Positions 30,039 to 57,900 of a DNA stretch of 64,000 nt are shown piece after piece. The notes under the pieces were generated by a model. The model saw only the letters and a program-made list of their open reading frames with translations. It was not told where the DNA came from and did not search any database. The DNA comes from Marsupella aquatica (taxonomy: Eukaryota > Plantae > Marchantiophyta). The position numbers and the translations under genes are program-made. Location of the stretch: assembly GCA_973895155.1 (NCBI GenBank), contig OZ316894.1, forward strand, positions 1,690,457 to 1,754,456, given 5' to 3'. How positions within the stretch are numbered: the stretch's first letter is position 1; each line of letters begins with the position of its first letter.

Positions 30039-33000
30039 ATGGCGGTGGTAAGTGAAGTCGTTGCAGTATGCAGTTCAATCCTCGGCATTGTGTCAAAGAT
30101 CGACAATGTCAAGGAAGACTGGTTCACTGCATCAGCCGAGTACCAAAGTGAAGCGGAAATCCTCCGCTCAAGGCTCATCTCCTACGTGGAGCAAGTCCGT
30201 ATCCATCAGCAACCAGTGGATAGTACTATGATGAAGACTTTGAAGAGAGCCGAATCAACATTGAAGAGGGCGGAAGCAAGATTGACCAGCTTGGAAGAAA
30301 GCGTCGACAGCAACCAGTGCTGTTCGCAAATCTGGTGGTTGTATGCAAAGGTGACCATGACCCTTTTCCCAGAGAAATTAGAAAGCACATTGAAGAAGGT
30401 GAACCAGGACCTTGATGGCATCCCCAAGATACTCAAGGACGAACAGGAACTCTCTGGTCTACTGCGAGAAGCAGGCAAGAGTCGAGCCATCTCTACAGTT
30501 GTCCACAATAACGATAATAAATATGTGCCAATAGAAAAGTCACAGTCTGCGGTCATTCAAGCCATTGAAAATTCTGACGGCCCTCCCATGATACTACTGC
30601 ATGGTGGAGTAGGTAAAGGCAAGTCCACTCTTGCCAGATACATGTGTGAGCGCTACGGGCAATTTGGAGAAAAACAAGGCCTCTTTGATCACGTGATTGT
30701 GGTGTCGTGTGCTAATAGCTCCATAATTGATCTTGCCACCAAGCAATATGAAATCTTGGAGCAGCTTAGTCCGGCGAGTTTAACGGAGGAAAGCCGCTCA
30801 AAATCTGGAACTGGAAAATCTGGGGAGAGTATGGGCTCAAAGTCTAGAATTGCAGAAGCTCTGCAAAAGTTCTTCATTGGCAAGAAGGTTTTGATGGTCT
30901 TAGACGACGTTTCAGATAAGGGATTTCTGTACAAAATGTGGGAGGCTGCGAGAGATGGTAAAGATGATAAGATCCTCATCACTTCCCAATTGTCGAACAT
31001 ATGCGATGACTTTAAACATGACTCTTTGCTTATTACGATGGAAGATCCTACCAAAGAGGAAGCGAGACAGATCCTTGCTTCTCTTGTGGGGCTGGAGAGT
31101 AATCGAATTCCTGAGAATATACAGGTTAGTTCCCCTCAAGCACATTTCACCTTGGTCGTTTATTGAGGAGGTACGTGTTTTGTTAAAATGTCCGTTGTAT
31201 TTCTTTTTAATATCTACCAACTAAATTTAGTCCTCACTGTTTTATCTTTGTATGCAGGGGATAGCAGATGAGATGATCAAAGCTACAGCGGGAAATCCCT
31301 TAGCTTTGGCATGTTTGGCAAGTAACTTTGCTTATGCAAAGCATGCTAAAGATAAAACAAAGAAGCGGGATTGGCAAGCTGCTTGGACAGAGTTATCTCA
31401 GTTGCTAGGCAATAAAGCGATGGCTATCGTGGTAGGGCAGAATAGTGAGACTGCAGCTAGAAGCCTGTCGGGTGCTATGAAGATTTGTATAGATTCTCTT
31501 CAAACAGAGGATGCAAAACACACACTGTTCCTAATGTATGCATGTAAAGGAGAATCGGTTCCTGAAGAGGTTCTGCGGATTTTGTGCTCTAGTAAGATGT
31601 CAAATTCTACATTCAAGCGGTCCATAGATGAATTGTCTATGCGAGAGCTACTGAAGCCTACGACTGATACATTAGCATCTAAGATGAACTTGGAGAAGGA
31701 ACCAAATGTCGAGGAGTCTCCTGCATGGTTGCTACAGTCTTTAGTGAAGCTCTTTATGGAAAGGCATCTGGTTGGGAAACAGGAAATGAGTGCAGTGATT
31801 GGGGCCTTGGTTGGCGATGACGAGTTTCCACCTGAGTCGAGCTCCAAATACAAGGTAGAGGACTATGAACAGGAAATAGTGAAGATTACAACCGGGACTG
31901 GAACAGAAACCACGGAGAGTGATGAGATGAGGGTGACAATCGCTCTGTGTGCTCTGTACTTTGACCGCCGCCATACCGATCAAGGCGTGACTCGAGCTGT
32001 GGCTAAGGCTTCCAAAATATCCAATCTTGAAGATTCGGATGAGAACATCAATGATCTGAGGAGGAAGGCGATTGAGCCGTTGATATGGCTTCTCGACAAG
32101 CCTGAAGAGGACGACGAATGGACGAAAAGCGATAAATGCTGTGTGAGGAAGGTAGTGTCCTGTCCCCTTGAGTATGTTCTTTCGTTTGCAACTTATGTCA
32201 GTCCAAATTGAGGTTAGGGAATCATTCGAGTAACTCTAATACTTCGGCACTCACAGATCTAACAGTTCACATGTTTGCGCATGACCGATTGAGTCAAAGT
32301 TTACTAGCCGTACTTTCAGCCATTGTTTGCAGTTGCCACTTCTTTTGAAAATCAAGGACGGTTCTGTGTAAACTATACAAATTCGACTTCTCCCGTGAAA
32401 TTACTGTTTGATAGCACGTGGCTATGAGGTAAACGCAAGTATTATTTATCTTGTAAGTCTACTGTACAGAATAACAATTTAGGTTCTATATGTGATAGTT
32501 TCTAAAATCAGAGGTCGAGTCTAAGAAGCATGATTTCTTAGACGAGCCATGTGTCTTGGTGAACTTTGTTTGCCTTGTTATTTCACATGATTTCTTGGAA
32601 ATCGTAACAGTTCTGATCTATATTAAACCAATCGCGGTTGTTTCAAGTGATGTTGTGTCACTGAATTGTTTTGGACTTGTGAATCACTTACTTTGCAGGT
32701 TGTTCTTGACTACATATGCAAGCGCCAGCTAAACAACGAGAACATCATTTACCTGTTGAAGTTGGCTGCTGGTCCTGCTGTACAGCTGGCCACTCTCAAG
32801 GCTATCGCTCACATTACATCAATAGAAGAAACACCCCTGCTCAAAGAAAACACAGTCCAGTTTTTACAAGCTGTGGTCGACCTTTTGCATTTGAAGGAGG
32901 GTTTACACACTGGCGTTCAAGAGGCGGCCTCTACGGCACTACGTCGTGTTTGTTGGAAGGCCGCGGGTGACAAATCAGCAACCCTTGTTGCTAACATGTC

Positions 33001-35310
33001 GTCTGTTCTGGACGTGTTGGTACACTCCCTTGCCATTCCCGTTTGGGAGTCAGAGGCTTTTGCCGAAAACGCAGCATATGCTTTGAAGGGCTTAGCATTC
33101 TCGGAGGAAGAGGACATTGAACAAATAATTGTGAACAAACAGGACCTACTAGCTAGTCTTGTGAATTGCTTGTCTCAGAATTCCACGCCTAGTTTGCAAA
33201 AAGCCGCAGCAGGGGCTTTGGAAAATCTAGCTTGCACTCAAGATGACGCTGTCAAGCTGAGAATCGCCAATGAAGAAGGGGCTGTAATTGCCCTTGCGAA
33301 TTGCTTGTCGAAGGATGAAAATCCCCACTTACAAATACGAGCAGCAGCGGCTCTACGAAATCTAGCTTCTTCGAACGATGACTTTTGCAAGTTGAGAATC
33401 GTTAATGAGAAGGGGGCTCTAGTTGACCTCGCGAATTGCTTGTCAAAGCATGACAATTGTGAGTTACAAATAAAAGCAGCAGGGCTCCTGCGAAATCTAG
33501 CTTGGACTCTAGATGACTCTCTTAAGTGGAGAATCGCCAATGAGAACGGGGCTCTAGTTGGCCTCGCAAATTGCTTGTCAAAGCATGACAATCGCGAGTT
33601 ACAAATAAAAGCAGCAGGGGTCCTGCGAAATCTAGCTTGGACTCTAGATGACTCTCTCAAGTTGAGAATCGCCAATGAGAAGGGGGCTCTGGTTGGCCTC
33701 GCAAATTGCTTGTCAAAGCATGACAGTCGCGAGTTACAAATAGAAGCTGCCGCGGCTCTGCGAAGTCTAGCTTTTTCAAAAGATGACTCTCTCAAGTCGA
33801 GAATCACCGATGAGAAGGGGGCTCTGGTTGGCCTCGTCAATGTCTTGTCAAAGAATGACAGTCGCCAGTTACAGATACAAGCTGCTGGGGCTCTGCGAAA
33901 TCTAGCTTGGACTCCAGATGACACTCTCAAGTTGAGAATCGCCAATGAGAAGGGGGCTCTAGTTCGACTCGCGAACTGCTTGCGAAAGCGTGACAATTGC
34001 GAGTTACAAATAGAAGCTGCAGGGGCTCTGCGAAATCTAGCTTTTACAAAGGACGACTCTCTCAAGTTGAGAATCGCCAATGAGAATGGGGCTCTGGTTG
34101 GCCTCGTAAATTGCTTGTCACAATGTGCGAACCCTGATGTGCAAAGAGAGGCAACAATAGTGATATCAAACCTAGCTCTTGCTCCAGATGGAAAGGCGAT
34201 CCTTCAAGGAGCGGAAGGTCTGTTGCAGGGCCTTACAAGCTTGGTGGAAGATGACGTGCGTCGGGATATTCGAAGTTCAGCAGTACAAGCGCTGTTTCGA
34301 ATAGACCTGACACTAGCTAAGGAAGTGGGGTTGCTCTCGGCACAACTAGATGGCAAAGCTTTAAGGTATGGTCGTGAATTCTTAATTGATTTCGAGCACA
34401 ACCTAGATTGTATAAAGTTCGATGGAAGGGAACAAGATCATGCAACAAAGTGGCCAGTGTAAAAAAAGAATTCCGTAGTGAGTAACGAAGCTAAGGGCAA
34501 TATCTGTACAGAGGCTAGTTTATCGTGCAGCAAGATACTACACTATACTAACCATTCTGCCTAATCAGCTGACCTGACAAGCTCAGTTGGATAGATAATT
34601 AACCTATACTTGATTCGAGGGTTCAACTAGCGGAAGAGTTCAGAATTTCCAGAATTTGGTAGACCTTTTCCCTCGTTTGTCTCTTGATCTGCCTCGGTTA
34701 GCAGGCAAGCGAATTTGTGGCCAGCATTTTGACGATAAGATTGGGAGTTTTCTTAGCATTGCAGATTCCAGCCGATGATTTATTGTACCATAGTTTGGAA
34801 GCGTCCAAGCCTAGTGGCGTTGGATAGGATAACACAGCTACACTTGAAATATGGTAGTAGCCGGAGTTGAGAAGGGAGGTTGAACATGTTGACATCCAAC
34901 TGCACGTGAATGTTTTGCAGCGTACATTAACTAAGTTTCATATTTGTGCTTGCAGTCATAGAATTTTTGTAAAAGCAAAATTTGGAGACTTTGAAGGGGC
35001 ACTGGATGATGCCAACGAGGCAATCACGATGCCGGATGGCGAGAGGTTTTTTATCTTGCAGGAGAGAGGTGTCTTGAAACGAATGATGGAAGACCTTGAG
35101 GGAGCCCTGGCTGATTTGGAGGAAGGATTAAAACTAGAAACGAATGACTACGAGATGCTGAAGCATCGTGGTTATGTCAAATCCTTGTTAAATGACGTGG
35201 AAGGCGCTCGAGCAGATGCAGAGTGGGCTCTATCGATCCAATCCTCAAGGGATGACAGCGATGACTACTTGGGAGCAACCCCTGTAGAATACTTGGGCTA
35301 CAAGCTGTAG
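30039..35310 (+). CDS. Non-canonical NLR-like STAND protein copy 1: 4-helix/RPW8-like CC + NB-ARC + Armadillo repeats (7 core units) + TPR; 1333 aa
   Basis: Exons 30039-31124, 31258-32151, 32699-34365, 34956-35310, all GT-AG with matching phases (4002 nt). Walker A GGVGKGKST, Walker B KKVLMVLDDV, RNBS-B KILITSQ, GLPL-like GNPLAL. ARM units of type LANCLS..N..LQ..AA..LRNLA. TPR exon GDFEGALDDANEAI / EDLEGALADLEEGL / NDVEGARADAEWAL. Confidence 0.9.
33158..34102 (+). repeat. Seven tandem 135-bp (45-aa) Armadillo repeats with high internal DNA identity
   Basis: Exact 135-bp period with recurring AATTGCTTGTCAAAG...GAGTTACAAATA...CGAAATCTAGCT...AAGTTGAGAATCGCCAATGAG. Confidence 0.95.
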
Positions 35311-42800: not shown

Positions 42801-42848
42801 GTAATCGCTGACGGATTTCTAATCCGTGCCTGGTCGGACTGCAGATTC

Positions 42849-45800
42849 ATGGCGGTGGTAAGTGAAGTCGTTGCAGTATGCAGTTCAATACTCGGCATTG
42901 TGTCAAAGATCGACAATGTCAAGGAAGACTGGTTCACTGCATCAGCCGAGTACAAAAGTGAAGCGGAAATCCTCGGCTCAAGGCTTAGCTCCTACAAGGA
43001 GCAAGTCCGCATCCATCAGCAACCAGTGGACAGTACTATGATGAAGACTTTGAAAAGAGCCGAATCAACACTGAAGAGGGCGGAAGCAAGATTGAAGGGC
43101 TTGGAGACAAGCGTCGACAGCAACCAGTGCTGTTCGCAAATCTGGTGGTTGTATGCAAAGGTGACCATGACCCTTTTCCCAGAGAAATTAGAGTGCACAT
43201 TGAAGAAGGTGAACCAGGACCTTGATGGCATCCCCAAAATACTCAAGGACGAACAGGAACACTCTCGTCTACTGCGAGAAGCAGGCAAGAATCGAGCCAT
43301 CTCTACAGTTGTCCACGATAACGATAATAAATATGTGCCAATAGAAAAGTCACAGTCTGCGGTCATTCAAGCCATCGAAGATTCTGATGGCCCTCCCATG
43401 ATACTACTGCATGGTGGAGTAGGTAAAGGCAAATCCACTCTTGCCAGATACATGTGTGAGCGCTACGGGCCATTTGGAGAAAAAAAAGGCGTCTTTGATC
43501 ACGTGATTGTGGTGTCGTGTGCTAATAGTTCCATATCTGATCTTGCCACCAAGCAATATGAAATATTGGAGCAGCTTTCTCCCACGAGTTTAACCGAGGA
43601 AAGCAGTTCAAAATCTGGAACTGGAAAATCTGGGGAGAGTGTGGGCTCAAAATCTAGAATTGCAAGAGCTCTCCAAAATTTCTTCATTGGCAAGAAGATT
43701 CTGATGGTCTTAGACGACGTTTCAGATAAGGGATTTCTGTACAAAATGTGGGAGGCTGCGAGAGATGGTAAAGATGATAAGATCCTCATCACTTCCCAAT
43801 GGTCCAACATATGCGACGACTTTAAACATGACTCTTTGCTTATTACGATGGAAGATCCTACCAAAGAGGAAGCGAGGCAAATCCTTGCTTCTCTTGTGGG
43901 GCTGGAGAGTAATAGAATTCCTGAGAATATACAGGTTAGTTCCTCGAGTAGATTTCACCCTGGTCGTTTATTGTGGAGGTACTTGTTTTGTTAAGTTGTC
44001 TGCTGTACATCTTTCTAATGTCTACTAACTAGATTTAGTCCTTACTGTATGTTTTTATCTTTGTATACAGGGGATAGCAGATGAGATGATCAAAGCGACA
44101 GCGGGAAATCCATTAGCTTTGGCATGTTTGGCAAGTAACTTTGCTTATGTAAAGGATGCTAAAGATAAAACAAAGAAGCGGGATTGGCAAGCTGCTTGGA
44201 GAGAGTTATCTCAGTTGCTAGGCAATAAAGCGATGGCTATCGTGGCAGGGCAGAATAGTGAGACTGCCGCTAGAAGCCTGTGGGGTGCCATGAAGATTTG
44301 TATAGAATCTCTTCAAACAGAGGGTGCAAAACGCACACTCTTCTTGATGTATGCATGTAAAGGAGAATCGGTTCCTGAAGAGGTCCTGCGGATTTTGTGT
44401 GCTGGTATGAAGATGTCAAATTCTATTTTCAAGAGGTCCATAGATGAATTGCGCATGCGAGAGCTACTGAAACCTACAACGGATACATTAGCATGGAAGA
44501 TGAATTTGGGGAACGGACCAAATGACGAAGTGTCTCCTGCATGGTCCATACAGTCTTTAGTGAAGCTCTATATGGAACGGGATGTGGTAGGGAAACAGGA
44601 AATGAGGGCAGTGATTGGGGCATTGGTTGGTGATGACCAGTTTCCACCTGAGTCAAGCACCAAATACAAGGTACACGACTATGAAACCGAAATATTGGAG
44701 ATTGCAACCGGGACTGAAACAGCAACCGTGGAGAGTGATGAGGTGAGAGTGACAATTGCTCTCTGTGCTCTGTACTTTGACCGCCGCCATACCGATCAAG
44801 GCGTGACTCAAGCCGTGGCTAAGGCTTCCAAAACATCCAATATTGAAGACTCTGAAGACAACATTAATGATCTGAGGAGGAAGGCGGTTGAGCCGTTGAT
44901 ATGGCTGCTCGACAAGCCTGAAGAGGACGACGAATGGACAGAAATGGATAAATGCTGTGTGAGGAAGGTACTGTCCTGTCCCCCTTGAGTATGTTCTTTC
45001 CTTTGTAACTTACGTCAGTCCGAATTGAAGTTAGAGAATCATTCGAGTGACTTTTATACTTGGGTACTCACAGATCATGTTTGCGCATGACCGATTGAGT
45101 CAACTTTTAATAGCCATACTTCAGCTATTCTTCACAACTTCGCACTTCTTTTGAAAACCAAAAGGACGGTCCTCTGTAAAATATACAATGTCAACTTTTA
45201 CAGTGAAAGTAGTGTTTGATAGCACGTGGTTGAGTGGTAAATGCAAGTAACATTTATCTTGGAACTCTATTGGACAGAATAACAATTTCTATATGTGATA
45301 GTTTTGAAAGAGTGCGAGTCTTGGAAGATTGATTTCTTGTGGTAGTTGAAGAGCCATGTGTCTTAGTGAGGTTTTCCTGCCTAGTTTCTCTTCGACAGGA
45401 GTTCTTATCTACATTCAACTAATCGAGGTTGTCTGCAATTATATATTGTCACTGAATTGTTTTAGAATTGTAAATCACTTTCTTTGCAGGTTGTTCTTGA
45501 CTACATATGCAAGCGCCAGCTAGATAACGAGAACATCACTTACCTCTTGAAGTTGGCCCCTTGTCCTTCTGCACAGTTGGCCACTCTTGAGGCTATCATT
45601 CACATAACACGGATAGAAGAAACGCCCCTGCTCAACGTAAACACAATCAGCTTTTTGCAAGCTGTAGTTGACCTTATGAACTTGAAGGAAGGTTTCCGCA
45701 CCAGTGTCCAAGAGGCAGCCTCTTTAGCCCTGTCTCGTCTTTGTGTGAAGGCCGCGCGTGACAAATCAGCAACCCTTGTTGCTAACTTGTCGCCTGTTCT

Positions 45801-47272
45801 GGACGTGGTGGTACGCTCCCTTGCCATTCCCGTTTGGAAGTCAGAGGCATTTGCCGAAAACGCAGCATATGCTTTGATGGGCTTAACATTCTCGCAGGAA
45901 AAGGACATTGAACAAGTAATTGTGAACAAACAGGACCTACTAGCTAGTCTTGTGAATTGCTTGTATCAGCAATCCAAGCCCAGTTTGCAAGCAGCCGCAG
46001 CAGGGGCTTTGCGAAATCTAACTTTTAGTCTAGATGAAGCTGTCAAGCTGAGAATCGCCAATGAAGAAGGGGCTCTTGTTGGCCTCGTGAATTGCTTGTC
46101 ACAATGTGAGAACCCTGTTGTGCAAAGAGAGGCAACAGCAGCGATAACAAACCTAGCCCGTACTCCAGATGGAAGGGCGATCCTTAAAGGAGCGGCAGGT
46201 CTGTTGCAGGGCCTTACAAGCTTGGTGGGAGATGACGTGCGTCGGGATGTTCGAAGTTCAGCAGTACAAGCGCTGTTTCGAATAGACCTGACACTAGCTA
46301 AGGAAGTGGGGTTGCTCTCGGCACATCTAGATGGCGAAGCTATAAGGTATGGTCGTGATTTTTTTTAATTGATTTCGAGCACAACCTAGATTGTATAAAG
46401 ATCGATGGAAGGGAACAAGATCATGCAACAAAGTGGCCAGTGTAAAAAAAAGAATTCCGTAATGAGTAACGAAGCTAAGGGCAATATCCGTACAGAGGCT
46501 AGTTTATCCTGCAGCAAGATACTACACTATACTAACCATTCCGCCGAGTTAGCTGGCTTGAGAATCTCAGTTGGATAGAGAATTAGCCTGTATTTGATTC
46601 GAGGGTTCAACTAGCGAAAGTGTTCAGAATTTCCAGAATTTGGCAGACTTCTTCTCTCATTTGTCTCTTGATCTGCCTCGGTTAAGCAGGCAATCGATTT
46701 GTGGCAAGCCTTTTGACAATAAGGTTGGAAGGTTTCTTAGCATTGTAGAACCAGCTCATGATTTATTGTACCATACATTTTAAGACGTCCAAGCCTAGTG
46801 GCATTGGATTGAGTAACATAGCTATACTTGAAATATGGTTGTAACCGAAGTTAAGAAGAAAAGGGTGAACATGATGTGTTTGCAGCGTATAACGAAGTTT
46901 CATGTTTGTGATGGCAGTGATAGAATATTTATAAAAGCAAAAGCTGGAGACTTTGAAGGGGCACTGGCCGATGCCAACCAGGTAATCACGATGCCGGGTG
47001 TCGACAGGCGGTTTGTCTTGCAGGAGAGGGGTGTCTTGAAACGAATGATGGAAGACCTAGAGGGAGCCCTGGCAGATTTGGACGAAGGATTAAAACTAAC
47101 ATCAAATGACTACGAGATGCTGAAGCATCGTGGTTATGTCAAATCCTTGTTAAATGACGTGGAAGGCGCTCGAGCAGATGCAGAGTGGGCTCTATCGATC
47201 CAATCCTCAAGGGATGACAGCGACGACTACTTGGGAGGAACGCCTGTAGAATACTTGGGCTACAAGCTGTAG
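42849..47272 (+). CDS. NLR-like CC-NB-ARC-ARM-TPR copy 2 with a single core ARM unit; 1064 aa
   Basis: Exons 42849-43934, 44071-44967, 45490-46346, 46918-47272 (3195 nt, open). Same intron positions and phases as copy 1. One 135-bp core unit at 45949-46083. Confidence 0.9.
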
Positions 47273-48164
47273 CAGTGGAGATTATTACTCGGTGTTCCAC
47301 AGTTACCGGAACCGTGTTGGATTTGTAGATAATTGAATCGCGCCATTCGTAGATTGTTTGTGTGAAGCAGAGCGTAGCTTGAATCACGATGATGATATGC
47401 GATTCACTCTCTGCGACTGGAAAGCTTGGAAAAAAAACTTCGTAGCACCATATGTGCAGGCTGGCCCTGCACAGAGGGTGTCAAAGATGATTGTATTCCT
47501 GTGTGATATTCAATTGTATGTAATTCAATAAACGGATCTGATCATACTAAGAGCTTATTCAGGCATGGGTTTCAATATCAAGGACCAAGAGCCCGCGGCG
47601 GAAAGTCGTCATTCAGCATGCTCACTTGGGGAGACTCAGACATCAATCTGTCTAAATTTTCGTCGTACCTTGTTACTTCTGTAGTATTATGCCGTTAAGA
47701 AAGACATGAGAATCCCCCTGCTGTTAGGAGGGATTTTGGCTGCTCTTCCAAAACGCCTTTCATAGAGAAACAGAGAGATCCACGAAGGGCAAAAGCGTAG
47801 CTTTCGCCTTTCAAAGAGAAACAGAAAGATCCAAGAATGGCAAGGACAATAACATAATCATGATGTTGCTTTGCAACTGACATGTTCTATGTCGACAGTT
47901 TTTGTGGCTAAACGTAGGAAGAGGTGTACAAATTCGAAGCTAGAATCGGTTTCTGCAGGAGTGGGGATGAGATTACAAATTCAAGACAAGCTCGCGATTC
48001 GTTCACTACAGAAGCCGTGTGAATTACTAAGGGGTGCCAAAGCTATTGACAGTAGAACAGAAATAGCTCCACAAAGCCCGTTAAACATCATGTTGACAAT
48101 GTCTCCAGAAAAGGAAGGGGAAATACAGTTTTGAATTGAGAGGGTTTTGTCAGGCTAAAACAAG

Positions 48165-50258
48165 GACCTATGACAAGGTCCAAAGAAAGACTCCGTGCAT
48201 GGGGCTCAATTCCATTGCAAGAATCTAGATCCCGGTCCTCCCTTACGTATAGCCGTAATTTATTAGTTTCTTACGTACTCTTTGGTTTTCAGAGATAACC
48301 AGGCAACTCCTTCCCGTAAATAAAACAAGTCCGGAGAACAAGGAAGGCCGATAGAAAGAGAATTTTGTAAGGAATTGTCACCTATGTCCCCACTGTAACC
48401 TCCTACTGTACTCAGGTCTATAAACAACTCCAATGGTGATTTGAAGATATCTTTTCTGTTAGTAAGAAAGTCAGGTTTGATGTGGCTCAATTATGCCAGT
48501 GGGAGGCTGATCAGAAATCCTACTCATTCGATCGCTCATCCAGTTACATTCGTTGCATAGGAGAAAAGGATCAACCTTCAAGCTACAAGAATTCATCTAT
48601 TGGGTGTCAAATACCTGATTCCCGTTTTATGGGAGCTTCGGTTGAGCTCTTCAGAATCGTGTTCAATATATGGAATTGGAGGACTGTGTAGCAATTATAG
48701 ACTAAAAAGAAGAAAGTACATTTTTTTAGCTTTGCGTCTGCTCTCGGGTGAGCACTTCAATCGGATACAATGGAATTGGAGGGATGAGACTGTAAACCAA
48801 AAGACTTAAATGAAGAAACTAAGTACAAACTGTAGATTTGTGTTTGCTCTCGAAATAGTACCCACTTCATCGCTAGTATATTCTAATCAGTGCATAATTA
48901 CAGATTCGCAGCCTTGAAGCTCAGCAAGTGACGCATATATATGATAGACAGTAATACAGAACTAATGTATCTATGATCCTGACGAATCACCCTTGTCGCT
49001 GTTTACAAATTGACTGGGACGGGGATTTGCAGGGCAGCCGGCCTGAGTATTACAGCTTGCGGAGCTTCTGTTTTCACCGTTGTCGTTTGCAAGCATTGTT
49101 TTATGCTACTGGTTGGACAATGTAATGGACTTTCCCTTATGGTAGTTTTTCTAAAGTGAAAAGTATCCGCCCATTTCACACTATTGAACGACTGTGATCC
49201 CATCCCGATCCCATCCCAAACTCGGAAAAGGAGATGGACCGGCCACCGAAGTCTTGTAAACAGGCCCTGACACTCATCTTGGAAGTATTTCCCAGAAGGG
49301 ATAAGATGAGCAACGTCCTCAGCGATGATCACAGAGGCTGAGCTGAATGGTCCCAACTAATAGTGGAGTGCTTATGTCGAAAAGACTCGAACACTATGCA
49401 AATGTGTCGATACGTCGATATTCCCGACGACATTTAACACAGGCGTCAGATCCGTTTCCTAGCTTCCATGTATACCAGTTTTGTTCGTTCTCCTAGATAT
49501 TTCGAGGGGCATTTTCCCATGACAGCTGCGAGACTTGGCATGTTGCTGGGAATTTGATTTTTTTGTAACATAGCTTGGGGTGCGAGTTGCTGACACTGTG
49601 TAGTCTCTGTATAGACGATTGTACGTGATAACAATCTGCCTTTAAAACGACCTAGGAGACAAACGTCGAGGAAAGTAGGCCCTCGTTCAACTTCATTCGG
49701 GGAGTCGATCTCATTCGGAATGATGCTATATGGACATCAGACACTATTTGCATCGAAACTGTAGATTGAGGGTGCCCATTGCCCAGTTGCCACCCCGGAA
49801 AACGACGACGTCTCTTGGGCAGGCTACTTTTCTCTTGGACTTTTCTCCCGTTTTCCTTTGCTGTGAATGCTTGACAGATCCGCAGTTACCGTGCACATGG
49901 ACCTTGACAAGGTCCAACAGAGACTCCGTGCATGGGGCTCAATCCAATTGCAAGAATCTAGATCCCGGTCCTCCCATATATAGCCGTAATTTCTTGGTTT
50001 CTTTGGTTTTCAGACATGACCGGGCAACTCCTTCCAGTAAACAAAACAAATCTGGACAACAAGGAAGGCCGATAGACAGCGAAATTTTGTAAGGAATTGT
50101 CCTCTATGTCCCCAGCGTAAACCCTCTACTGTACTCAGGTCTATAAACTACTCCAGCTCCGAAGGAAGGCCGATAGACAGCGAAATTTGTAAGGAATTGT
50201 CCTCTATGTCCCCAGCGTAAACCCTCTACTGTACTCAGGTCTATAAACTACTCCAGCT
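48165..50258 (+). repeat. Dispersed ~270-bp direct repeat (48165-48432 vs ~49900-50158) with a local ~100-bp tandem duplication (50061-50258)
   Basis: GACAAGGTCCAA..AGACTCCGTGCATGGGGCTCAAT...CTACTGTACTCAGGTCTATAAAC occurs twice. AAGGAAGGCCGATAGACAGCG...ACTCCAGCT is duplicated in tandem. Confidence 0.8.
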
Positions 50259-51163
50259 TCGAACTTCTCTGTTTTACAGTTCTTCGTATTTTCCCGCAGT
50301 CCTTTTTTAGTAAATTCTATGTTGATGCAGTTTGTGCAATCGCCACAGTTGCACGAAGATGTGAGATCAAAGTCTTCCTTTCCACAAGCTCTTCAGTAGT
50401 GATTTCCCTGCGCGCAATTCGAAGCTAGCAATTAATCACGTAGGAAGCATAGCTCAGTCGACTTCGTGCATACCGAGTTGCCGAGTTCAGTGAGAACTTC
50501 GCCTTGACTTTGGACCGGGGTATTGCCAGATTGCATTATGCAGATACAAATGTGGGAGATCAAGCGTGTGTTGATGTATAACACCAGCCCGAATAAACTG
50601 AGGTCAAGTTGAGTTCGGGAGTGACAGCCCTCCCTCGCCGCACGCAGGTATTCTGGCCGTGCATAATTAGTCAACTTGTTTCTGCTGTAGAGCAGGCCTC
50701 AATTTCATCGAACATTGAGGTCGCCGTTTCTGCAATCTGAAATTCTACAGCTCGAACCTTCAATTCAGGTCGCCGGAGATGGTCATTACCGACGTTGGCC
50801 GCAAGGTATGTGTTGTTCATACATGTTGAGTGAGCTTGCACTAGGACCATATCTGTACTTCAATCGTCGAGCTTGTCTTTGCATTGCCCTAGCCCTCTCC
50901 TTCATTCAGCACGTACTCGACAGAACTTGTAATGGTTGCAGCTCTGCAGATCTATTTTGTTTCGACAAATAGAGTAGAAACTTTTCTGGGTATTGCAATG
51001 CCTCGATTAGCCCGTGATGCCTCGATCAGATCGGGATGCAGTATGTACAGGAGCTCGACAGTGAAGTGATGTTTCTTTCCTTCCGGAGCGTTGATCTCTT
51101 AGAACTTAGTAGATCTACTTTTACGAGAAGTCTTGGGTTGCATTTGTGTGTGTGGGTACGTGT

Positions 51164-54100
51164 ATGACAATAGCGAGTTACAAACACAGGTAGCACGGGC
51201 TTTGAGAAATCTAGCCTCCTCAAGACATCACGAGTATCTCGGGCTCAGATCCGACAATGAGCGTGCTCTGGTTCGCCTCGTGAATTGCTTGTCTCGTCAA
51301 TCCAAGCCTAGAATGCAAGCAGCCGCGTCAAGGCGTTTGCGAAATCTGGCTGCTACTGGAGATGACGCTGTCAAGCTGAGAATTGCCAATGCGGAAGGGG
51401 CTCTAGTTGGGGTAGTGAGTTGCTTGTCAAACGATAACAACAAGAAATTACAGTTGCATTCAGCATGGATTCTGGTAGCACTAGCAGGTTCAAAAGATGA
51501 GTCTCTCAAGTTGAGAATCGCCAATGACGAGGGGGTTGTGGTTGGCCTCGTGAATTGCTTGTCAAAGCATGACAATCCCGAGTTACAAGCAACCGCAGCA
51601 GGGGCTTTGCTAAATCTAGCTATTAATGGAGATGAGTCTGTCAAGCTGAGAATCGCCAATGAGGAAGGGGCTCTGGTTGCGGTAGTGAGTGGCTTGTCAA
51701 ACAATAAGAACAGTAAATTACAACTCCGTTCAGCATGGATTTTGGCAGCACTGGCAGCTTCAAAAGATGAGTCTTTCAAGTTGAGAATCGGCAATGAGGA
51801 CGGGGTTCTGGCTGGTCTCGTAAATTGCTTGTCAAAGAATTACAATGTCGTAAATTGCTTGTCAAAGCATTACAATCCTAAGTTACAAACAGCCGCAGCA
51901 TCTGCTTTGCGAAGTCTATCCATTGGGGGTGAGGCTGTCAAGCTGAGAATCGCCAATGAGGAAGGGGCACTAGTTGGGGTAGTGAGTTGCTTGTCAAACA
52001 ATAAGAATAGTAAATTACAATTGCATTCAGCAACGATTTTGGCAGCCCTGGCAGATTCAAAAGGTGAGTCTTTCAAGTTGAGATTCGGCAATGAGGACGG
52101 GGTTCTGGCTGGTCTCGTAAATTGCTTGTCAAAGCATACAATGCTGAGTTACAAACAGTCGCAGCAGCCGCTTTGCAAAAACTTTCAATTGGAGGTGAGG
52201 CTTCCAAGCTGAGAATCGCCAATGAGGAAGGGGCTCTAGTTGGCATAGTGAGTTGTGTGTCCAATGATGAAAACGGCAAATTACAATTGTATTCAGCATT
52301 GACGTTGGCAGCACTGGCAAATTCAGAAGATGAGTCTCTCAAGTTGAAAATCGCCAATGAGGATGGGGTTCTGGTTGGCCTCGTAAATTGCTTGTCAAAG
52401 AAGGACAATCCCAAGTTACAAGTAATTGTAGCAGTGGCTTTGGGAAATCTAGCTTGTACTAAAGATGACGCGGTCAAGCTGAGAATTGCCAATGAGAAAC
52501 AGGCTCTAGTTAGCGTAGTGACTTGCTTGTCAAATGATGACAACGGCGAATTGCAAACACAGTCAGCACGGATTTTGGCATCTCTAGCAGCTTCAAAAAA
52601 TAATTCTCTGAAGTTGAGAATCGCCAATGACAAGGGAGTTCTGGTTGGCCTCGTAAACTGCTTGTCAAAGCATGAAAATGCCAAGTTACGAGAAGTGGCA
52701 GTAGGGGCTTTGATGAATCTTGCCACTTCACAGTCCCTCAAGCTGAGAATTGCTAATGAGGAAGGTGCTATAGTAGGCCTCGTGAATTGCTTTTCTCAGA
52801 AAGCCAATCCAAGTTTGCAAGCAGCTGCAGCAGGGGCTTTGCGAAATCTAGCTTGTACTACGGATGACGCGGTCAAGCTGCGAATTGCCAACGAGGAAGG
52901 GGCTCTGCTTGGCATAGTGACTTGCTGGACAAACGACCACAACCCCCAATTACAAAGACATTCAGCATACATTTTGACAGGTTTAGCAGCGTCAAAAGAT
53001 GAGCCTCTCAAGTCGAGAATCGCCAAAGAAGTGGGGGTTCTGGTTGGCCTCGTCAATTTTTTGTCAAAGCATGACAATAGCGTGTTACAAGCACACGCAG
53101 CACGAGCTTTGAGAAACCTAGCCGCTTCAAAAGATGAGTCTGTCAAGTTGAGAATCGCCAATGAGGAGGGTGCTCTGGCTGGCCTCGTGAATTGCTTGTC
53201 ACAATGTGAGAACCCTGATGTGCAAAGAGAGGCAGTCATAATGGCATCAAACTTAGCTCGTGCACCAGATGGAAAGGCGATCCTCAAAGGAGCGGAAGGT
53301 CTTTTGCAGGGCCTTACAAGCTTGTTGGGAGATGACGTGCATCCGGATCTTCGAAGTTCAGCAGCACAGGCGATTTTTAAAATAGACCCGACACGAGCTA
53401 AGGAAGTGGGGTTGCTCTCGGCACAACTAGATGGCCGAGCGTTAAGGTATGGTCGTGAATTTATCACTGATTTCGGCACAACTCTAGATGGTATAAAGAT
53501 GGGTGGAAGGGAACAAGATTGTCCAACGAAGTGGCCAGTGTAGAAAAAGAATTCCGAAGTAAGTAACGAAGCTAAGGGCAGTATTTGTGCGAGTATTTGT
53601 GCATATGCGATGATTCATGAGAGTAGTTTATCCTGTAGCAAGATGATGTACTATACAAACCATTCCGCCTAATTAGCTGGCTTGACAAGCTCAGTTGAAT
53701 AGAAAAATAAACTCGCCTCGATTCGATGGTTCAACTAGCGGAAGAGTTCAGAATTTCCAGGATTTCGCAGAGTTTTTTCCTCATTTGTCTTTTGATCTGC
53801 CTCGGTTAGCAAGCAAGCGAATTTGCGGCGAGCCTTTTGACGATAAGATTGGAAGGTTTCTTAGGATTGCAAACTCCAACAGAGGATTTATTGTACCCTA
53901 CAATTGGAGACGTCCAAGCCTAGTGGCGTTAGATTGAGTGGGTACTTGAAATGTGGTAGGAGCCAACTTGACAAGAAAGGGTGAACGGATTGAAATCCCA
54001 GTGCGCGTGATTGTTTGAAGCGTATAACTAAAGTTTCATATTTGTGATGCAGTCATAGGATTTTTGTAAAAGCAAAATTTGGGGACTTTGAAGGCGCACT

Positions 54101-54407
54101 GGACGATGCCAACCAGGTAATCACGATGCGGGATGTCGAAAGGCGGTTTGTCTTGCAGGAGAGGGGTGTCTTGAAACGAATGATGGAAGACCTTGAGGGA
54201 GCTCTAGCAGATTTGGACGAAGGATTAAAACTAAAAGCAAATGACTACGAGATGCTCAAGCATCGTGGCTATGTCAAATTTTTGTTGGATGACGTGCATG
54301 GCGCTCGCGCAGATGCAGAATGGGCTCAATCAATCCAACCCTCAAGGGAAGACACGGACTGCTACTTGGGAGGAACCCCGGTAGAATACTTGGGCTACAA
54401 ACTGTAG
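51164..54407 (+). pseudogene. NLR-like copy 3: headless ARM array (14 units plus a partial one) + cap + TPR exon; lacks CC and NB-ARC; one frameshift
   Basis: Upstream sequence homologous to 41.5-41.77 kb is fused directly to mid-repeat sequence at ~51164. 1-nt deletion at ~52137 (AAGCATACAATG vs AAGCATTACAAT). Conserved last intron 53447-54052 and intact TPR exon 54053-54407. Confidence 0.85.
51277..53183 (+). repeat. 14 tandem ~135-bp ARM units, largely alternating A/B types
   Basis: 1907 bp = 14x135 + 30-bp duplication (51818-51877) - 3 - 3 - 6 - 1. A type: LVNCLSK..N..LQ..AA.AL.NL. B type: VVSCLSN..N.KLQL.SA.IL.ALA.SK. Confidence 0.9.
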
Positions 54408-54489
54408 CAGTGGAGATTATGACTCGATGTTCCAAAGTTACTGGAACGGTGTTGGATTTACTGGAACGGTGTTGGATTTGTAGATAATT

Positions 54490-54863
54490 AGTGTAGCCCT
54501 TATTCCCAGTTCTTTGAACATGAATAGCAAAGAAGACAATAAAAAAATTATCAAAATATATTTGAGATTCATATTCTTTGAAAATTAATGAAATGATAAA
54601 AAAAATTTCATCATTTTAATAGTCATATATAATATATCATTCTCCTTGATGTGCACGGGCTTTTTGTATGCACATCCATGTTCTATGCACATATGTTGTG
54701 GTGGGGCCATACTACCTATATTTTTTTAATGTACATGTCATAAGTTTTTCCCATGTATATGATGACCATGCACATGATGACCATAAAGTTACTGTCTAGA
54801 GGCTTCACTCTAGACCCTAGCCTGTGAAAAGTAGACTGCAGTTTGCGCTTTATTAGTAAGATT
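54490..54863 (+). mobile_element. Fragment of the same Helitron family inserted just 3' of copy 3
   Basis: Reverse complement of ~23835-24250 with an internal deletion. Absent at the homologous site of copy 2 (GTAGATAATTGAATCG at ~47325-47340). Confidence 0.8.
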
Positions 54864-57204
54864 GAATTGCACCACTCGGACATTGTGGGATTCGAAGCAA
54901 GGCTTGGCTTGAATCACGATCATGACATGCGATTACCTGTCTGTGGCTGGAAAGCTTGGACTTTGTAGCATCAGATATCCCTTTGTAATTGTACGGCGGA
55001 TCTAATTATATAAAGAGCATACTCAGGCATGGGTCTCAATATTACAGACCAAGAGCTCACTTGGACAAACTCTAATATCAACATGCTTAATTGAAGTTTT
55101 GTAGTACCTTGTAACTTCTGTAGTATTATCCAGTAGAGAAAGAGAAGACACCCTTTTGGCTAAAATTTTCCTGTACAGAAAGAGAAGACACTTTTTGGCT
55201 GTCTTCATCTCTTTTTTTCGACAGCTAGTGTCTCTGGTTCTTCAGCTGGCCCAGGTTTTCACCCTCCTTCGTAGGGCTAAGGCAGTTGATTTTAGGGCCT
55301 CCCGATAGGTTCTGCTTGGTGACCTTGCTATGCGGGGCACTCCGGAGCTCTACAGACTTTTCAGTTCTATGCTGAGTAGGGTGTACCTCATGGCTCCTTT
55401 GTAGGTTACTTTTTGGTCTTTGTTCCTTAGTCTGTTTTTGTTTGGGGACCCCTTGACTCTTTTTTCTTGGGGCCCTTTCTCCTCTTTCCTTTCTCTTCAT
55501 TGGATTGCTTTGCCTTTGGGATCATGTCTCCTGGTTCAATTTTTTTTGCCCTTGGGCACTGAGATATATATTTTGGCTGTGCTTCCAAAAGCACAGTTTT
55601 CTCCTTTCAAAGAGAAACAAAGAGATCCAAAAAGGGCAACTACAATAAGATAATAGTGATGTTGCTTTACGACATATCAGTCCCATCGCATTGGGGGTCC
55701 TTGTTGGCTGTACATTGTTCAGTGCTATGTAGTAATCACTGGAATGATATAGTTAGGATGCAGTTCTGCTGATTTCCACATATCTTTTGTTATCTAGCTA
55801 TATGGTTTGAAATATTGATTCTAAAATATCTCAACTGCCATGAGAGGGAGTAAGGTTGATTGGATTTAGGCGCAAGGAGGGGTAGCATTTGGAGAAGTGG
55901 TCAACATATTTTGAGGGTTTCCTAGAGCTAACAACAGCCCACTTCACATTCTTGTAGTGAACCTCACTATCCTTACTTAATTTTGCCTTCCTTAACTTTT
56001 AGGTCCGGTTCCTTGCTCTCAACTTTGTGGCATTTATTGCAACTCACTCTTCCAATTTCTCAGGGTCTTTTAGGCTTCCGTACATTGAAAGCACCTTTGG
56101 CCTTTTAGGGCACATGCAAGTGCAAATGAGTTACAACCAGAACATCTGAACACAATTATATTATGGTCAAGACAAAAATCCTTATGGATACCTATAATGA
56201 TGCCCATAAGGAGCAGACTTCCAAAAAGTGGATGCATATAACTTGAGAATCTCATCATTCACAGCTAATTAATTAATCATAGCCATAAGACCTTGATTTT
56301 GGCAGTGCATTGCCATGCCTTGGTGACCTTAAAGTCTAAGTAAGACTAACTTTTGTCAATTTTTCAGAAAAAAAATTATCCACTTTGTTTAAATTGCTAG
56401 TAAAACTTGGGCGATCTTGAGTCCAAAGTAACACTAACTCTTGTGGATTTTTCAAAACAGTTTTTCCCCCTACAATTTACCACTCTTGAGACCACAATAA
56501 CACTACTTCATGTGCGCGTAAGTAGTGTTATGACCAACTTAGTGTGACTAACACTAATTAACAAGTAAACCCTGAAATTCCTCTATTTTTCCACTCTTGA
56601 GACCACATTAACACTAATTCGTGCACATGGAAATAGTGTTATGACAAAATTATTGCAACTAACCTTATTCACGAGTAAACTGTCACTCTTGAAAGAATGG
56701 AAATTGAAGCCCAGATAGACCTCTAGGTTTGTCAAAATGCTCCCGGGCATGGATTTTTGCACAAATGGACTGCATTTTACTCACAATGACATAATTAGGA
56801 AATATTTCCTAATATTCCTTAGTAGCCCACATCCTGATTGTGTGGTTGATATCTAAGTTCCATGGGAGCATCATTCAGATCATTGTAAAAAACAAGGAAA
56901 CAGCAAAAAAATTCCCCAGCACGAGCAGAAAATTTCCTCACATGACCCCTGATTTTTCCTATATCCAACTCCTTAGCTAACAAGAACCTGGTTGATAAGA
57001 TACATTTTGGGGATTCCTCTTTTTGGTAGCAAACTTGTTAGCCATCTGGAGTCATAAAAAAACACAAAAATATATAATAGGCAGCAAAAAGCAATAGAAA
57101 TTTAAAATCACTAGTCTTTCACTAACAACACTCTCCTCGCTAACAACATTCCTATTTGCTTCCATTATACAATACCTCCCATCATTTTCCAAATGAATGT
57201 AACG

Positions 57205-57900
57205 CCAATTACCTTGAACCATGTAGACGTGGCAGACTGTACAGTAGGCCTAGCACTAATTATTGTGTGAACCATTTGGACGTGGTAGACTGTACAGGTA
57301 GGCCTAACACTAATTACTGTGAACCATGTAGACGTGGTAGAATGTACAGTCTGCCTAACACTAATTACTGTGAACCATGTAGACTTGGTAGAATGTCCAG
57401 TCTGCCTAACACTAATTACTGTGAACCATGTAGATGTGGTCGACTGTACAGTAAGCCTAACAGTAATTACAGTAAACCATGTAGACGTGGTAGAATGTAC
57501 AGTATGCCTTAACACTAATTACTGTGAACCATGTAGACTTGGTATACTGTACAGTACGCCTAACCCTAATTAATGTGTGAACCATAGAGACGTGGTAGAC
57601 TGTACAGTAGGCCTAACACTAATTACAATGAACTATGTAGACGTGGTAGACTGTACAGTAGGCCTAACACTAATTACTGTGAACCATGTAGACGTGGTAG
57701 ACTGTACAGTAGGCCCCAGTCGACTGTAGTGAGTGTAGCCCTAACACTAATAACTAATTACTTTGAACCATGTAGACGTGGTAGACTGTACAGTAGGCCA
57801 CAGTCTACTGTAGTGAGTGTAGGCCTAACACTAATTACTGTGAACCATGGAGACGTGGTAGACTGTACAGTAGGCCCCAGTCTACTGTAGTGAGTGTAGA
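57205..57900. repeat. 51-bp minisatellite, ~12 units (ACTAATTACTGTGAACCATGTAGACGTGGTAGACTGTACAGTAGGCCTAAC)
   Basis: 51-bp period (e.g. 57309 to 57360). The last three units carry an added CAGTCTACTGTAGTGAGTGTAG segment. Confidence 0.95.

Follow-up and report, generated by a model that had tools for sequence, protein, structure and literature searches.

The closest described relatives of the locus considered here are liverwort CC-NB-ARC-ARM-TPR proteins, of which five from Calypogeia fissa (P0003, P0004, P0005, P0014 and P0018) and MpNBS-LRR15 from Marchantia polymorpha (P0164) have 45-aa ARM units, a cap and a TPR tail. Higher-order repeats occur in the Calypogeia arrays, as dimers in P0004, P0005 and P0018 and as trimers in P0014, and the helix-3 residues along the 7 detected units of P0018 read N G N S N G Q, so that units lacking Asn at this position are found there too. 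The liverwort proteins fall within the CC-NB-ARM class of NLR-like proteins in plants, and both this class and its studied member, rice RLS1, are taken from the literature (PMC12512272, PMC10586772, PMC10030324); RLS1 is likened to them by description, not by sequence.

The locus described here was found in Marsupella aquatica, in a window of 64,000 nucleotides (the whole stretch of DNA that was analysed; contig OZ316894.1, positions 1,690,457 to 1,754,456 of the forward strand). The window contains two intact CC-NB-ARC-ARM-TPR genes of four exons each (copies 1 and 2) as well as a third copy at 51164–54407 (+), which follows copy 2 in tandem, ~3.9 kb downstream and on the same strand. Copy 3 consists of an ARM array, in which half a unit is followed by 14 full units of 45 aa and a cap, and of a TPR exon (Table 1); its homologues are the 3' parts of the two intact genes. 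It resembles the liverwort proteins in its units, its cap and its tail ending ...PVEYLGYKL, and its identity to P0003 is 41–47% in the array and 72% in the conserved TPR tail, which lies on a separate last exon (P0003 residues 1430–1551). Unlike these proteins, it has a broken frame in this genome and lacks the CC, the NB-ARC, exon 2 and the beginning of exon 3. Copy 3 probably represents a recently disabled, 5'-truncated tandem paralogue, most likely a young pseudogene in this genome; a working gene and a repeat donor, both suggested in a first-pass annotation of the sequence, are less likely than an ordinary decaying truncated duplicate.

Table 1. Features of copy 3, its flanks and the neighbouring copies (window coordinates)
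Feature	Position	Strand	Remarks
Copy 1, intact, reference	30039..35310	+	exons ~30039-31124, 31258-32151, 32699-34365, 34956-35310
Copy 2, intact paralogue	42849..47272	+	exons ~42849-43934, 44071-44970, 45490-46346, 46918-47272
Retained upstream block	50928..51165	+	homologous to copy 2 41445-41768; ends at deletion junction
Half ARM unit	51164..51237	+	A-type helix 3, DNSELQTQVARALRNLASS, at junction; array begins mid-repeat
14 full ARM units, 45 aa	51238..53144	+	order A B A B A B A B A B A A B A
A-unit starts	51238, 51508, 51778, 52075, 52341, 52611, 52740, 53010	+	from translations
B-unit starts	51373, 51643, 51940, 52206, 52476, 52875	+	from translations
First in-frame ATG	51313..51315	+	inside helix 3 of unit 1; frame open from 51103
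30-bp tandem duplication, in frame	~51818..51877	+	VNCLSKNYNV / VNCLSKHYNP inside A unit 51778
1-bp deletion (frameshift)	52136..52137	+	in A unit 52075; frame change between ORFs
Cap ARM unit and C-terminal end of exon 3	53145..53446	+	up to splice donor
Last intron	53447..54052	+	GT...AG, homologous to last intron of copies 1 and 2
TPR-tail exon	54053..54407	+	ends ...GGTPVEYLGYKL plus TAG
Repeat-element insertion, ~370 bp	54494..54863	+	~85 nt after stop; absent from copies 1 and 2

A truncated copy with a clean array

A tblastn comparison with P0003 (1551 aa) recovered four exons each in copies 1 and 2, and in copy 3 only the array (51130–53465) and the last exon (54051–54404). The first two exons of copy 1 and the N-terminal part of its third were each found at the 2 of 2 expected places in the window and at no third (tblastn), residues 1–720 of P0003 gave no match between 47.3 and 51.16 kb (tblastn), and the interval 47300–51100 contains no family-like ORF of at least 50 aa. 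NB-ARC is recognised by Pfam in copy 1 (53.1 bits) and copy 2 (51.7 bits), and in none of the ORFs of copy 3. The loss of the CC, NB-ARC and exon 2 that had been proposed is borne out by these searches, and exon 1 and the start of exon 3 are likewise gone, so that copy 3 is without essential 5' exons of its parent gene. There is no N-terminal coiled coil in copy 3; for copies 1 and 2, in whose heads Pfam finds no N-terminal family, the CC label follows the literature class. In copy 1 coordinates, the deletion takes in everything between a point ~0.4 kb ahead of the start codon and the middle of the ARM array.

Upstream of the deletion a block is retained whose counterpart in copy 2 sits ~1.1 kb upstream of the copy 2 ATG, and to which copy 1 has no clear homology in a three-way alignment. 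Its two parts match copy 2 separately, 50928–51118 with 41445–41642 at ~77% (76.6% over 201 bp by blastn) and 51121–51165 with 41724–41768 at 82% over 45 bp (blastn), and the match to an ARM unit begins directly at the junction, at 51164. Blastn and the three-way alignment both place the junction at ~51164, and the paralogous upstream region is indeed fused to mid-repeat sequence. We also compared the locus with short-read contigs from four runs and two organisms, A and B: X1 may be the sample behind the window assembly, while X3, X4 and X5 come from the related organism B. As all four runs cover intron and intergenic DNA evenly, they appear to be genomic. The junction is contained in contigs of X1 (50900–51389, with 0 differences), X3 (50900–51389) and X4 (51112–51277) and, being common to these, indicates that the truncation predates the separation of organisms A and B.

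The array of 14 units is confirmed by translation. Alternation of two unit types, A and B, had been described for units 1–10 with a period of ~270 bp; the period holds, but the alternation actually runs through 11 units. TRF reports periods of 135, 270 and 297 bp, the 270-bp period extending over 51336–52712 (5.0 copies, 77% matches). While A units keep the helix-3 Asn, the six B units have A, S or G instead and read HSAWILVA, RSAWILAA, HSATILAA, YSALTLAA, QSARILAS and HSAYILTG, exactly as listed in the first-pass annotation. DNA identity is 73–90% between B units and 60–68% between A and B units. By translation, no B unit is present in copies 1 and 2, as had been noted. The B type is nevertheless not a peculiarity of copy 3, because B-like non-Asn units and alternating arrays exist in intact Calypogeia fissa NB-ARC-ARM proteins; in a tree of units, the B units are monophyletic (98) and group with the 21 internal units of P0004 and P0005 (UFBoot 83). 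Higher-order ARM repeats and units without the helix-3 Asn are family-wide in liverwort NB-ARC-ARM-TPR proteins, and this variety of repeats bears on possible ligand recognition by these little-studied receptors.

Other traces of duplication are a 75.5% copy of the internal stretch 52672–53201 at 51164–51699 and the 30-bp duplication (TRF, 2.0 copies, 96%). The cap is 89% identical to that of copy 1 and 84% to that of copy 2. Pfam Arm scores in the array are 42.6 and 69.0 bits against a cut-off of 20.6, and an AF2 model of 52137–53444 is a predicted ARM solenoid (pLDDT 85.6, pTM 0.82) for which Foldseek returns designed ARM proteins, Vac8, importin-alpha and beta-catenin with E down to 6.5e-15. 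Three minus-strand ORFs (51297–51839, 52073–52795 and 52796–53614) were rejected as genes and taken as a by-product of repeat composition, since they have a counterpart over the array of copy 1 (33238–34203). Peaks of contig depth at 51505–51625 and 53078–53198 were likewise discarded as a signal of copy number; they reflect short words common to many paralogous units.

At the 3' end, the splice donor AAG/GTATGG (53446/53447) is at the same place in all three copies and the acceptor CAG/T (54052/54053) is placed as in copies 1 and 2. The sites are thus intact as reported, but the start of the TPR exon had to be corrected to 54053. The tail scores 26.2 bits for TPR_9 and 20.7 bits for TPR_1, both below the curated Pfam cut-offs; the homologous tail of P0164 reaches 44.9 bits for TPR_1. 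There is a 20-bp tandem duplication at 54438–54477, and the repeat inserted at 54494–54863 has an 81% match to 24250–23834 on the other strand. An Rfam scan of 47000–56000 with E up to 0.1 gave 0 matches.

A segregating frameshift and apparently neutral recent change

In the coding frames of copy 3, 323 + 436 codons contain 0 stops, compared with 24–39 stops in each other frame. The only break is the 1-bp deletion at 52136/52137, between ORFs 51103–52212 and 52095–53543, in agreement with the single frameshift and lack of in-frame stops noticed at first. The deletion differs among samples. A T inserted behind 52136 is found in X4 (depth 96.3/96.3), and in neither X1 (0/18.9) nor X3 (0/49.3), both of which keep the deletion; the deletion site is bypassed in X5, where 51840 is joined to 52137 in frame, giving an allele 296 bases shorter (window coordinates) with one dimer less. 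This joint is tentative and may be an assembly path through the repeat, as it comes from one contig at depth 3.7. Given the intact frame in X4 and the shorter in-frame allele in X5, the ORF is whole in some genomes; the disabling mutation is present in the window and X1 and is not fixed among the samples.

Between organisms A and B, the only indels in the array are a 3-bp in-frame deletion and the frameshift itself, while the 606-bp intron has 3–5 indels that are not multiples of three (10, 5 and 1 bases in organism B). When indels are set against substitutions, array and intron differ with p = 0.013 (Fisher), or 0.088 on a conservative count. This scarcity of array indels may be a weak hint at protection of the frame, and would then speak against a pseudogene.

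Comparing the window with organism B, the array shows 28 N : 10 S among 38 of 50 changes listed and the TPR exon 2 N; the sum of 30 N : 10 S (38 of 50 array changes listed, plus TPR exon) against 1727:553 sites corresponds to an omega of ~0.9–1.0, which among the changes listed fits neutrality (p = 0.86) and lies above an omega of 0.5 with marginal significance (one-sided p = 0.045). An omega near 1 is not diagnostic here: between copies 1 and 2, both intact, it is 0.83 over the corresponding tail and 2.25 over unit 0. Over the longer term, the codon changes found only in the tail of copy 3 amount to 20 N : 19 S (p = 0.001 versus neutral), its NG86 omega is 0.39 versus copy 1 and 0.44 versus copy 2, and unit-to-unit omega is ~0.5–0.56, as in copy 1. 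Judged by these codon counts, the tail of copy 3 has been constrained for most of its branch, and from this long-term purifying signal (20 N : 19 S, omega 0.39–0.56) any loss of constraint must be recent.

In the history that we favour, the A/B dimer array would have arisen in a receptor gene that was as yet complete and under selection. B-like units and higher-order repeats of two or three units run in the family. The head would have been lost afterwards, prior to the separation of organisms A and B, and the remnant may then have drifted near-neutrally, acquiring length changes by unequal crossing-over, a polymorphic frameshift, a repeat inserted past the stop codon and, in one sample, the loss of a start codon. 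On this view, the clean ORF would be a sign of youth rather than of function. In a simulation, the probability that a 2280-nt frame was still free of stops was 0.33 after 25 random substitutions, 0.13 after 50 and 0.017 after 100, so that an intact ORF is expected if decay started ~1–2% divergence ago.

Alternative explanations

The alternative that survives best, although we consider it doubtful, is that copy 3, in accessions with an intact frame, is a candidate for an expressed ARM-TPR-only protein, which would sense on its own, serve as a decoy or modulate the receptors next to it. Translation would start at the ATG at 51313 or from an unseen upstream exon, and the frameshift in the window would be a recent loss-of-function allele. 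The whole frame of X4 and the shorter allele of X5, the intact splice sites and TPR exon, the purifying selection on the tail along the copy 3 branch, and the rarity and frame-preserving nature of indels in the array, unlike in the intron, are all consistent with such a protein, as are the confidently predicted solenoid and the natural ARM-TPR-only proteins of Riccia, whose tails are 48–49% identical to that of copy 3. In addition, helix-3 position 32 is the most variable position of the B units, with 5 residue types among 6 units. Against this stand the recent omega of ~1 among the substitutions listed and the sole candidate ATG: it is in the open frame from 51103, as had been observed, but lies inside a helix and is changed to TTG (A>T) in X3, being unchanged in X4. 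The upstream block, at 77%, is no better conserved than the intron (~81%, copies 2 vs 3), and a repeat has been inserted behind the stop codon. Among proteins of 265–844 aa, no short ARM-TPR relative is closer than 30% identity; the 4 distant ARM proteins found in this size range (27–30% identity) neither support nor oppose a stand-alone form.

On the suggestion in the first-pass annotation of a recently functional ARM-TPR-only protein the evidence is divided: the X4 frame, the X5 allele and the tail constraint agree with it, the recent neutrality and the lost ATG of X3 do not. An extended version, which we think unlikely, would have copy 3 as a living ARM-TPR-only gene in part of the population, where a recognition module has been freed from the NB-ARC switch and its frame is kept by selection. 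The Asn ladder of the A units and the hypervariable 'Trp position' of the B units might then bind a ligand or titrate neighbouring receptors, and the Riccia ARM-TPR proteins might be older products of the same route. Were expression of the remnant to be shown, it would illustrate how a sensor domain can be set loose as a protein of its own.

It is very improbable that the array is a reservoir of repeat variants passed by gene conversion or unequal crossing-over into its intact neighbours, as had also been proposed. Its tandem position on the same strand close to copy 2 speaks for this, and array lengths do change by recombination in unit register, copy 1 having 7 A-type units and a cap and copy 2 only 1 unit and a cap, and a 297-bp dimer being missing in X5. 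However, the three copies of the window carry no B unit outside copy 3 and no convincing conversion tract by site patterns or maximal exact matches. Units of copy 3 are at most 81% identical to those of copy 1, no higher than among the A units of copy 3, and the longest exact matches that copy 3 shares with copies 1 or 2 (40 and 53 bp) both fall in conserved coding parts. Sites in the tail fit the plain tree ((copy 1, copy 2), copy 3) without long shared runs, copy 3 having 145 sites to itself, copy 2 having 64 and copy 1 having 55; the one run of shared sites covers ~12 bp of the intron, in which only copy 2 departs from the others. The idea of a repeat donor finds no basis in these three copies.

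That an assembly error, such as repeat collapse or a miscalled dinucleotide, has produced the headless structure or the frameshift is barely conceivable: repeat arrays are error-prone and the deletion takes one T of a TT, but contigs built from short reads of four runs, representing two organisms, cross the junction or the array and differ little or not at all, and X1, which may be the window's own sample and is then not fully independent, runs over 52136 without an insertion at depth 18.9.

Comparison with known systems

Proteins with the architecture that copy 3 would encode exist in Riccia, where P0006, P0017 and P0021 (automatically named 'Protein unc-45 homolog B') have an ARM array followed by the same TPR tail and no NB-ARC by Pfam, which indicates that an ARM-TPR-only architecture is viable. 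The tail of P0006 is 48.8% identical to 54063–54404. The Riccia proteins differ in being much longer (1180–1503 aa), in having N-termini of their own and in an identity of only ~29% over the ARM part.

In importin-alpha, Trp and Asn have a role in ligand binding. The array of copy 3 shares the predicted fold of importin-alpha, beta-catenin and Vac8, with query-normalised TM-scores of 0.72–0.77 (rice importin-alpha, Vac8, beta-catenin), but sequence identity is only 16–24% and, unlike in these solenoids, the helix-3 Asn is replaced by A, S or G in the B units.

Tandem clusters of plant NLR genes contain truncated NLR paralogues and pseudogenes. Copy 3 is like these in being a tandem duplicate with a 5' loss and a disabling mutation, in varying in length by unequal crossing-over, and in its location among transposon remains. 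As the evidence stands, it is an ordinary truncated paralogue within an uncommon family, and provides a well-dated snapshot of the decay of a non-LRR plant immune-receptor-like gene, with the head lost in two related organisms, the frameshift still segregating and the array length shifting in a two-unit register. It differs from truncated NLR paralogues in that its sensor repeats are ARM rather than LRR, and in how unusually clean it is: its ~2.6 kb of coding sequence carry a single frameshift, which is not fixed among related samples.

A head-less paralogue beside two intact receptor genes

The DNA is eukaryotic and plant-like, and the closest protein relatives of all three loci belong to the leafy liverwort Calypogeia fissa (P0003, followed by P0004 and P0005). 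Copies 1 and 2, the intact upstream genes, have open reading frames with GT/AG splice sites at matching places; exon 1 of each is about 66% identical to P0003 (tblastn), a protein of 1551 aa that shows 49% identity across the third exon of copy 1. The two genes share 88% and 84% DNA identity, about 700 bp of ARM units being missing in copy 2 relative to copy 1. Their arrays differ greatly in length. Copy 1 has seven near-uniform A units (those keeping the helix-3 Asn) and a cap, the last ARM unit, with five inner units 79–93% identical to each other, and copy 2 has one unit and a cap; between the first units of the two genes omega is 2.25 over 45 codons.

The three-gene cluster is surrounded by transposon remains. 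Between copies 1 and 2 lies an ORF that encodes part of an Exo70 C-terminal domain; in other plants Exo70 is targeted by effectors and occurs as a domain integrated into NLRs. The direct repeats between copies 2 and 3 are possibly the terminal repeats of a small element.

Coordinates of the three loci and of neighbouring features (positions in the window)
Feature	Position	Strand	Evidence or remark
ORF with transposase domain	267-2192	+	tnp2-type (CACTA-like), Transposase_21, 194 bits
Tandem array	21747-22158		35-bp unit, 11.7 copies
Copy 1 exons	30039-31124, ~31258-32151, ~32699-34365, 34956-35310	+	tblastn with P0003, boundaries checked
Copy 2 exons	42849-43934, ~44071-44970, ~45490-46346, 46918-47272	+	tblastn with P0003, boundaries checked
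ORFs with NB-ARC	29889-31166, 42774-43994		Pfam, 53.1 and 51.7 bits
ORFs with Arm repeats	32651-34462, 45466-46368, 51103-52212, 52095-53543		Pfam
Copy 1 ARM array	33119-34198	+	
Copy 2 ARM array	45910-46179	+	
ORF with Exo70_C fragment	38017-38709	+	Pfam, 56.8 bits, profile positions 11-87 of 372
Direct repeats, ~270 bp	48160-48432, 49895-50155		85% identical, 1.7 kb apart
Tandem duplication, 100 bp	50061-50263		98%; at second direct repeat
Copy 3 upstream blocks	50928-51118, 51121-51165		match 41445-41642 and 41724-41768
Copy 3, start of ARM sequence	51164	+	
Copy 3, tandem duplication, 30 bp	51818-51876	+	in frame
Copy 3, frame break	52136/52137	+	lost T
Copy 3, cap unit	53145	+	
Copy 3, donor; acceptor	53446/53447; 54052/54053	+	match copies 1 and 2
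Copy 3, stop	54405-54407	+	matches copies 1 and 2
Tandem duplication, 20 bp	54438-54477		perfect; just ahead of the insertion
Repeat insertion, ~370 bp	54494-54863		~85 nt past copy 3 stop, absent from copies 1 and 2; 81% identical to opposite-strand copy at 23834-24250
Tandem array	57200-57899		51-bp unit, 10 copies; also periods 207 and 258 bp; 77-bp repeat adjoins
ORF with weak SSB match	58046-58744	+	single-strand-binding protein, Pfam 27.2 bits, cut-off 26

The first-pass annotation had described copy 3 as a head-less copy whose upstream region is fused directly to mid-repeat sequence, and this is what we find. Matches to P0003 (tblastn) cover its array and last exon only; exon 1, exon 2 and the N-terminal part of exon 3 of copy 1 each match copies 1 and 2 and no third place within the window, and no coding sequence was found between copies 2 and 3. 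The upstream blocks match sequence about 1.1 kb before the ATG of copy 2. Positions 51164-51699 repeat internal sequence at 52672-53201 with 75.5% identity, so the array truly begins inside a unit.

Five public sequencing runs contain the stretch, X1 and X2 from organism A (0.94 and 0.90 of its words) and X3, X4 and X5 from a related organism B (0.60, 0.58 and 0.21). No run of the five is recorded as RNA, and X1–X4 cover intron and intergenic DNA alike and so look genomic; X1 is possibly the sample from which the window was assembled. Contigs cross the junction in X1 (50900-51389, no differences), in X3 (the same interval, with six differences as well as 3 bp deleted at 51230) and in X4 (51112-51277), so that the head-less structure is real and appears to predate the split between organisms A and B.

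The array of copy 3 opens with a half unit. Fourteen 45-aa units come next, arranged A B A B A B A B A B A A B A, and the cap and the C-terminal part of exon 3 close it. The six B units, which lack the Asn, also diverge from A in helix 2 (VVSCLSN.. vs LVNCLSKH..), with DNA identities of 73–90% among B units and 60–68% between A and B. Repeat periods are 135, 270 and 297 bp (TRF), and two codons are missing from unit 52611. An alternation through units 1–10 with a period of about 270 bp had been noted before, as had the absence of B units from copies 1 and 2, and both hold on translation, the alternation running through 11 units; the six helix-3 strings were recovered exactly. The TPR exon and splice sites are likewise intact, as claimed, the last exon being 72% identical to the tail of P0003. 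Its Pfam TPR matches fall under the cut-offs (TPR_9, 26.2 bits), and the homologous tail of Marchantia polymorpha P0164 exceeds them (TPR_1, 44.9 bits).

Frame, constraint and the nature of copy 3

The lost T is the sole frame break, and the earlier description of one frameshift and no in-frame stops stands: there are no stops in 323 + 436 codons, against 24–39 in each of the other frames. The T is likewise absent from X1 and X3 (inserted T at 0/18.9 and 0/49.3 depth), and X4 carries a T inserted at 52136 (depth 96.3/96.3) that restores the frame; the frameshift is polymorphic. In X5, 51840 is joined to 52137, skipping 296 bases; by frame arithmetic this single contig of depth 3.7 may tentatively represent an allele that stays in frame and has one A/B dimer fewer. 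The ATG at 51313 is TTG in X3 only.

We consider it probable that copy 3 is a truncated tandem paralogue, which became head-less, presumably ahead of the split between organisms A and B, and would only just have been disabled by the frameshift in this genome, where it presumably has no function.

For the tail, 219 codons that run from the cap to the stop, the NG86 method gives omega values of 0.39 (copies 1 vs 3), 0.44 (2 vs 3) and 0.83 (1 vs 2). Non-synonymous and synonymous changes unique to each copy number 20:19 in copy 3, which deviates from neutrality (p = 0.001), 11:4 in copy 1 and 11:7 in copy 2. With unit-to-unit values of 0.56 (B-B), 0.49 (A-A) and 0.57 (copy 1 units), the array and tail of copy 3 were evidently shaped under moderate constraint, like those of the intact genes.

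An alternative is that genomes with an intact allele express an ARM-TPR-only protein from copy 3, as the restored frame in X4 would allow. Recent changes may point the other way. Of 50 array substitutions that separate the window from organism B, the 38 listed comprise 28 non-synonymous and 10 synonymous changes (sites 1727:553), and the TPR exon adds two, both non-synonymous. The total of 30:10 among substitutions listed, none of them creating a stop, fits neutrality (two-sided p = 0.86) and lies marginally above omega 0.5 (one-sided p = 0.045, or 0.09 once six partial-depth rows are removed). This does not settle neutrality, because omega rises C-terminally in the intact copies too, from 0.31 (exon 1) through 0.39 (exon 2) and 0.55 (N-terminal part of exon 3) to 0.83 (tail). 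In simulations a 2280-nt frame stayed free of stops with P = 0.33 after 25 random substitutions, 0.13 after 50, 0.017 after 100 and 0.0005 after 230, so that any neutral phase would have lasted no longer than about 2–4% divergence, which would agree with a head loss not long before A and B diverged. When A is compared with B, the array, as far as incomplete contig cover reaches, differs by the 3-bp deletion and the frameshift itself only, and the 606-bp intron by 3–5 indels (sizes 10, 5 and 1 bases). Relative to substitutions this contrast (Fisher p = 0.013; conservative count 0.088) hints away from neutral decay, and we weigh it lightly because of that cover. On balance we regard an expressed protein as unlikely, with an appreciable chance nonetheless.

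The array had also been proposed as a reservoir of repeat variants for conversion into the intact genes. Among the three copies in the window there are no conversion tracts, and site patterns, exact matches and units give no sign of sequence transfer between copy 3 and its neighbours. Unique sites in the tail alignment number 145 (copy 3), 64 (copy 2) and 55 (copy 1), patterns that fit a plain ((1,2),3) history, and the sole run of shared sites (about 12 bp) is in the intron. In exon 3 the longest stretches that copy 3 shares exactly with copies 1 and 2 measure 40 and 38 bp, and in the intron plus TPR exon 38 and 53 bp; no A unit of copy 3 exceeds 81% identity to a copy 1 unit, and neither intact gene has a B unit. 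On the evidence of these three copies, a donor of repeats to the neighbouring receptors is unsupported and highly improbable. An assembly artefact is very unlikely, as contigs from three runs span the junction, and a slim remainder falls to readings other than those weighed.

Origin of the B units

Queried with the second ORF (P0002), an exhaustive search without profiles returned 515 proteins at E ≤ 0.001, of which 13 reached E ≤ 1e-30. NB-ARC and ARM, in some cases with a TPR tail, are combined in C. fissa P0014, P0004 and P0018, Marchantia paleacea P0019, M. polymorpha P0164 (‘MpNBS-LRR15’) and Riccia sorocarpa P0023. ARM and TPR occur without NB-ARC in Riccia fluitans P0017 and P0021 and R. 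sorocarpa P0006; these three are long, auto-named ‘unc-45 homolog B’, and carry the same conserved TPR tail (...VEYLEFKL).

When the relatives are divided into units by an HMM trained on those of the window, higher-order ARM repeats appear, dimeric in P0004, P0005 and P0018 and trimeric in P0014, which makes these a family trait. The Asn position (helix-3 position 36) reads N G N S N G Q in successive units of P0018, is chiefly non-Asn in P0004 and P0005, and is N in 12 of 13 units of P0003. Some of the intact NB-ARC-ARM relatives P0014, P0018, P0004 and P0005 alternate Asn and non-Asn units.

In a tree of 63 units (LG+G4, UFBoot; excluding the frameshifted unit 52075 and unit 51778, which bears the duplication), whose supports are moderate because it has 45 columns, the B units are monophyletic (98) and group with the 21 internal units of the intact P0004 and P0005 (83). 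Among the A units of copy 3, three join internal units of P0003 (80); first units, including 51238 and 52740 of copy 3, and caps form groups of their own (96 each). This argues that B is an old unit type borne by intact receptors, and not one invented by the head-less copy.

Comparison with known ARM proteins

The product of 52137-53444, folded without alignment, is confidently predicted to be an ARM solenoid (pLDDT 85.6, pTM 0.82), nearest to designed ARM proteins, Vac8, importin-alpha and beta-catenin (E 6.5e-15 to 1e-10, TM 0.7–0.77). Helix-3 position 32 is the most variable in B units (W, W, T, L, R, Y); it is four residues ahead of the Asn position, which would correspond to the Trp...Asn spacing by which importin-alpha binds peptides. 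Copy 3 is of interest chiefly for how repeats evolve in a receptor family that has been little studied. Our literature searches on liverwort and Marchantia NB-ARC-ARM proteins found no mention of a head-less ARM-TPR copy, of A/B arrays or of a family-wide dimer or trimer pattern. Published work presents CC-NB-ARM proteins as NLR-like proteins of plants that form a conserved class, rice RLS1 being the studied member (PMC12512272, PMC10030324), and, for NLRs of non-flowering plants, ARM, TPR and ANK repeats as alternative ligand-binding domains (PMC10586772).
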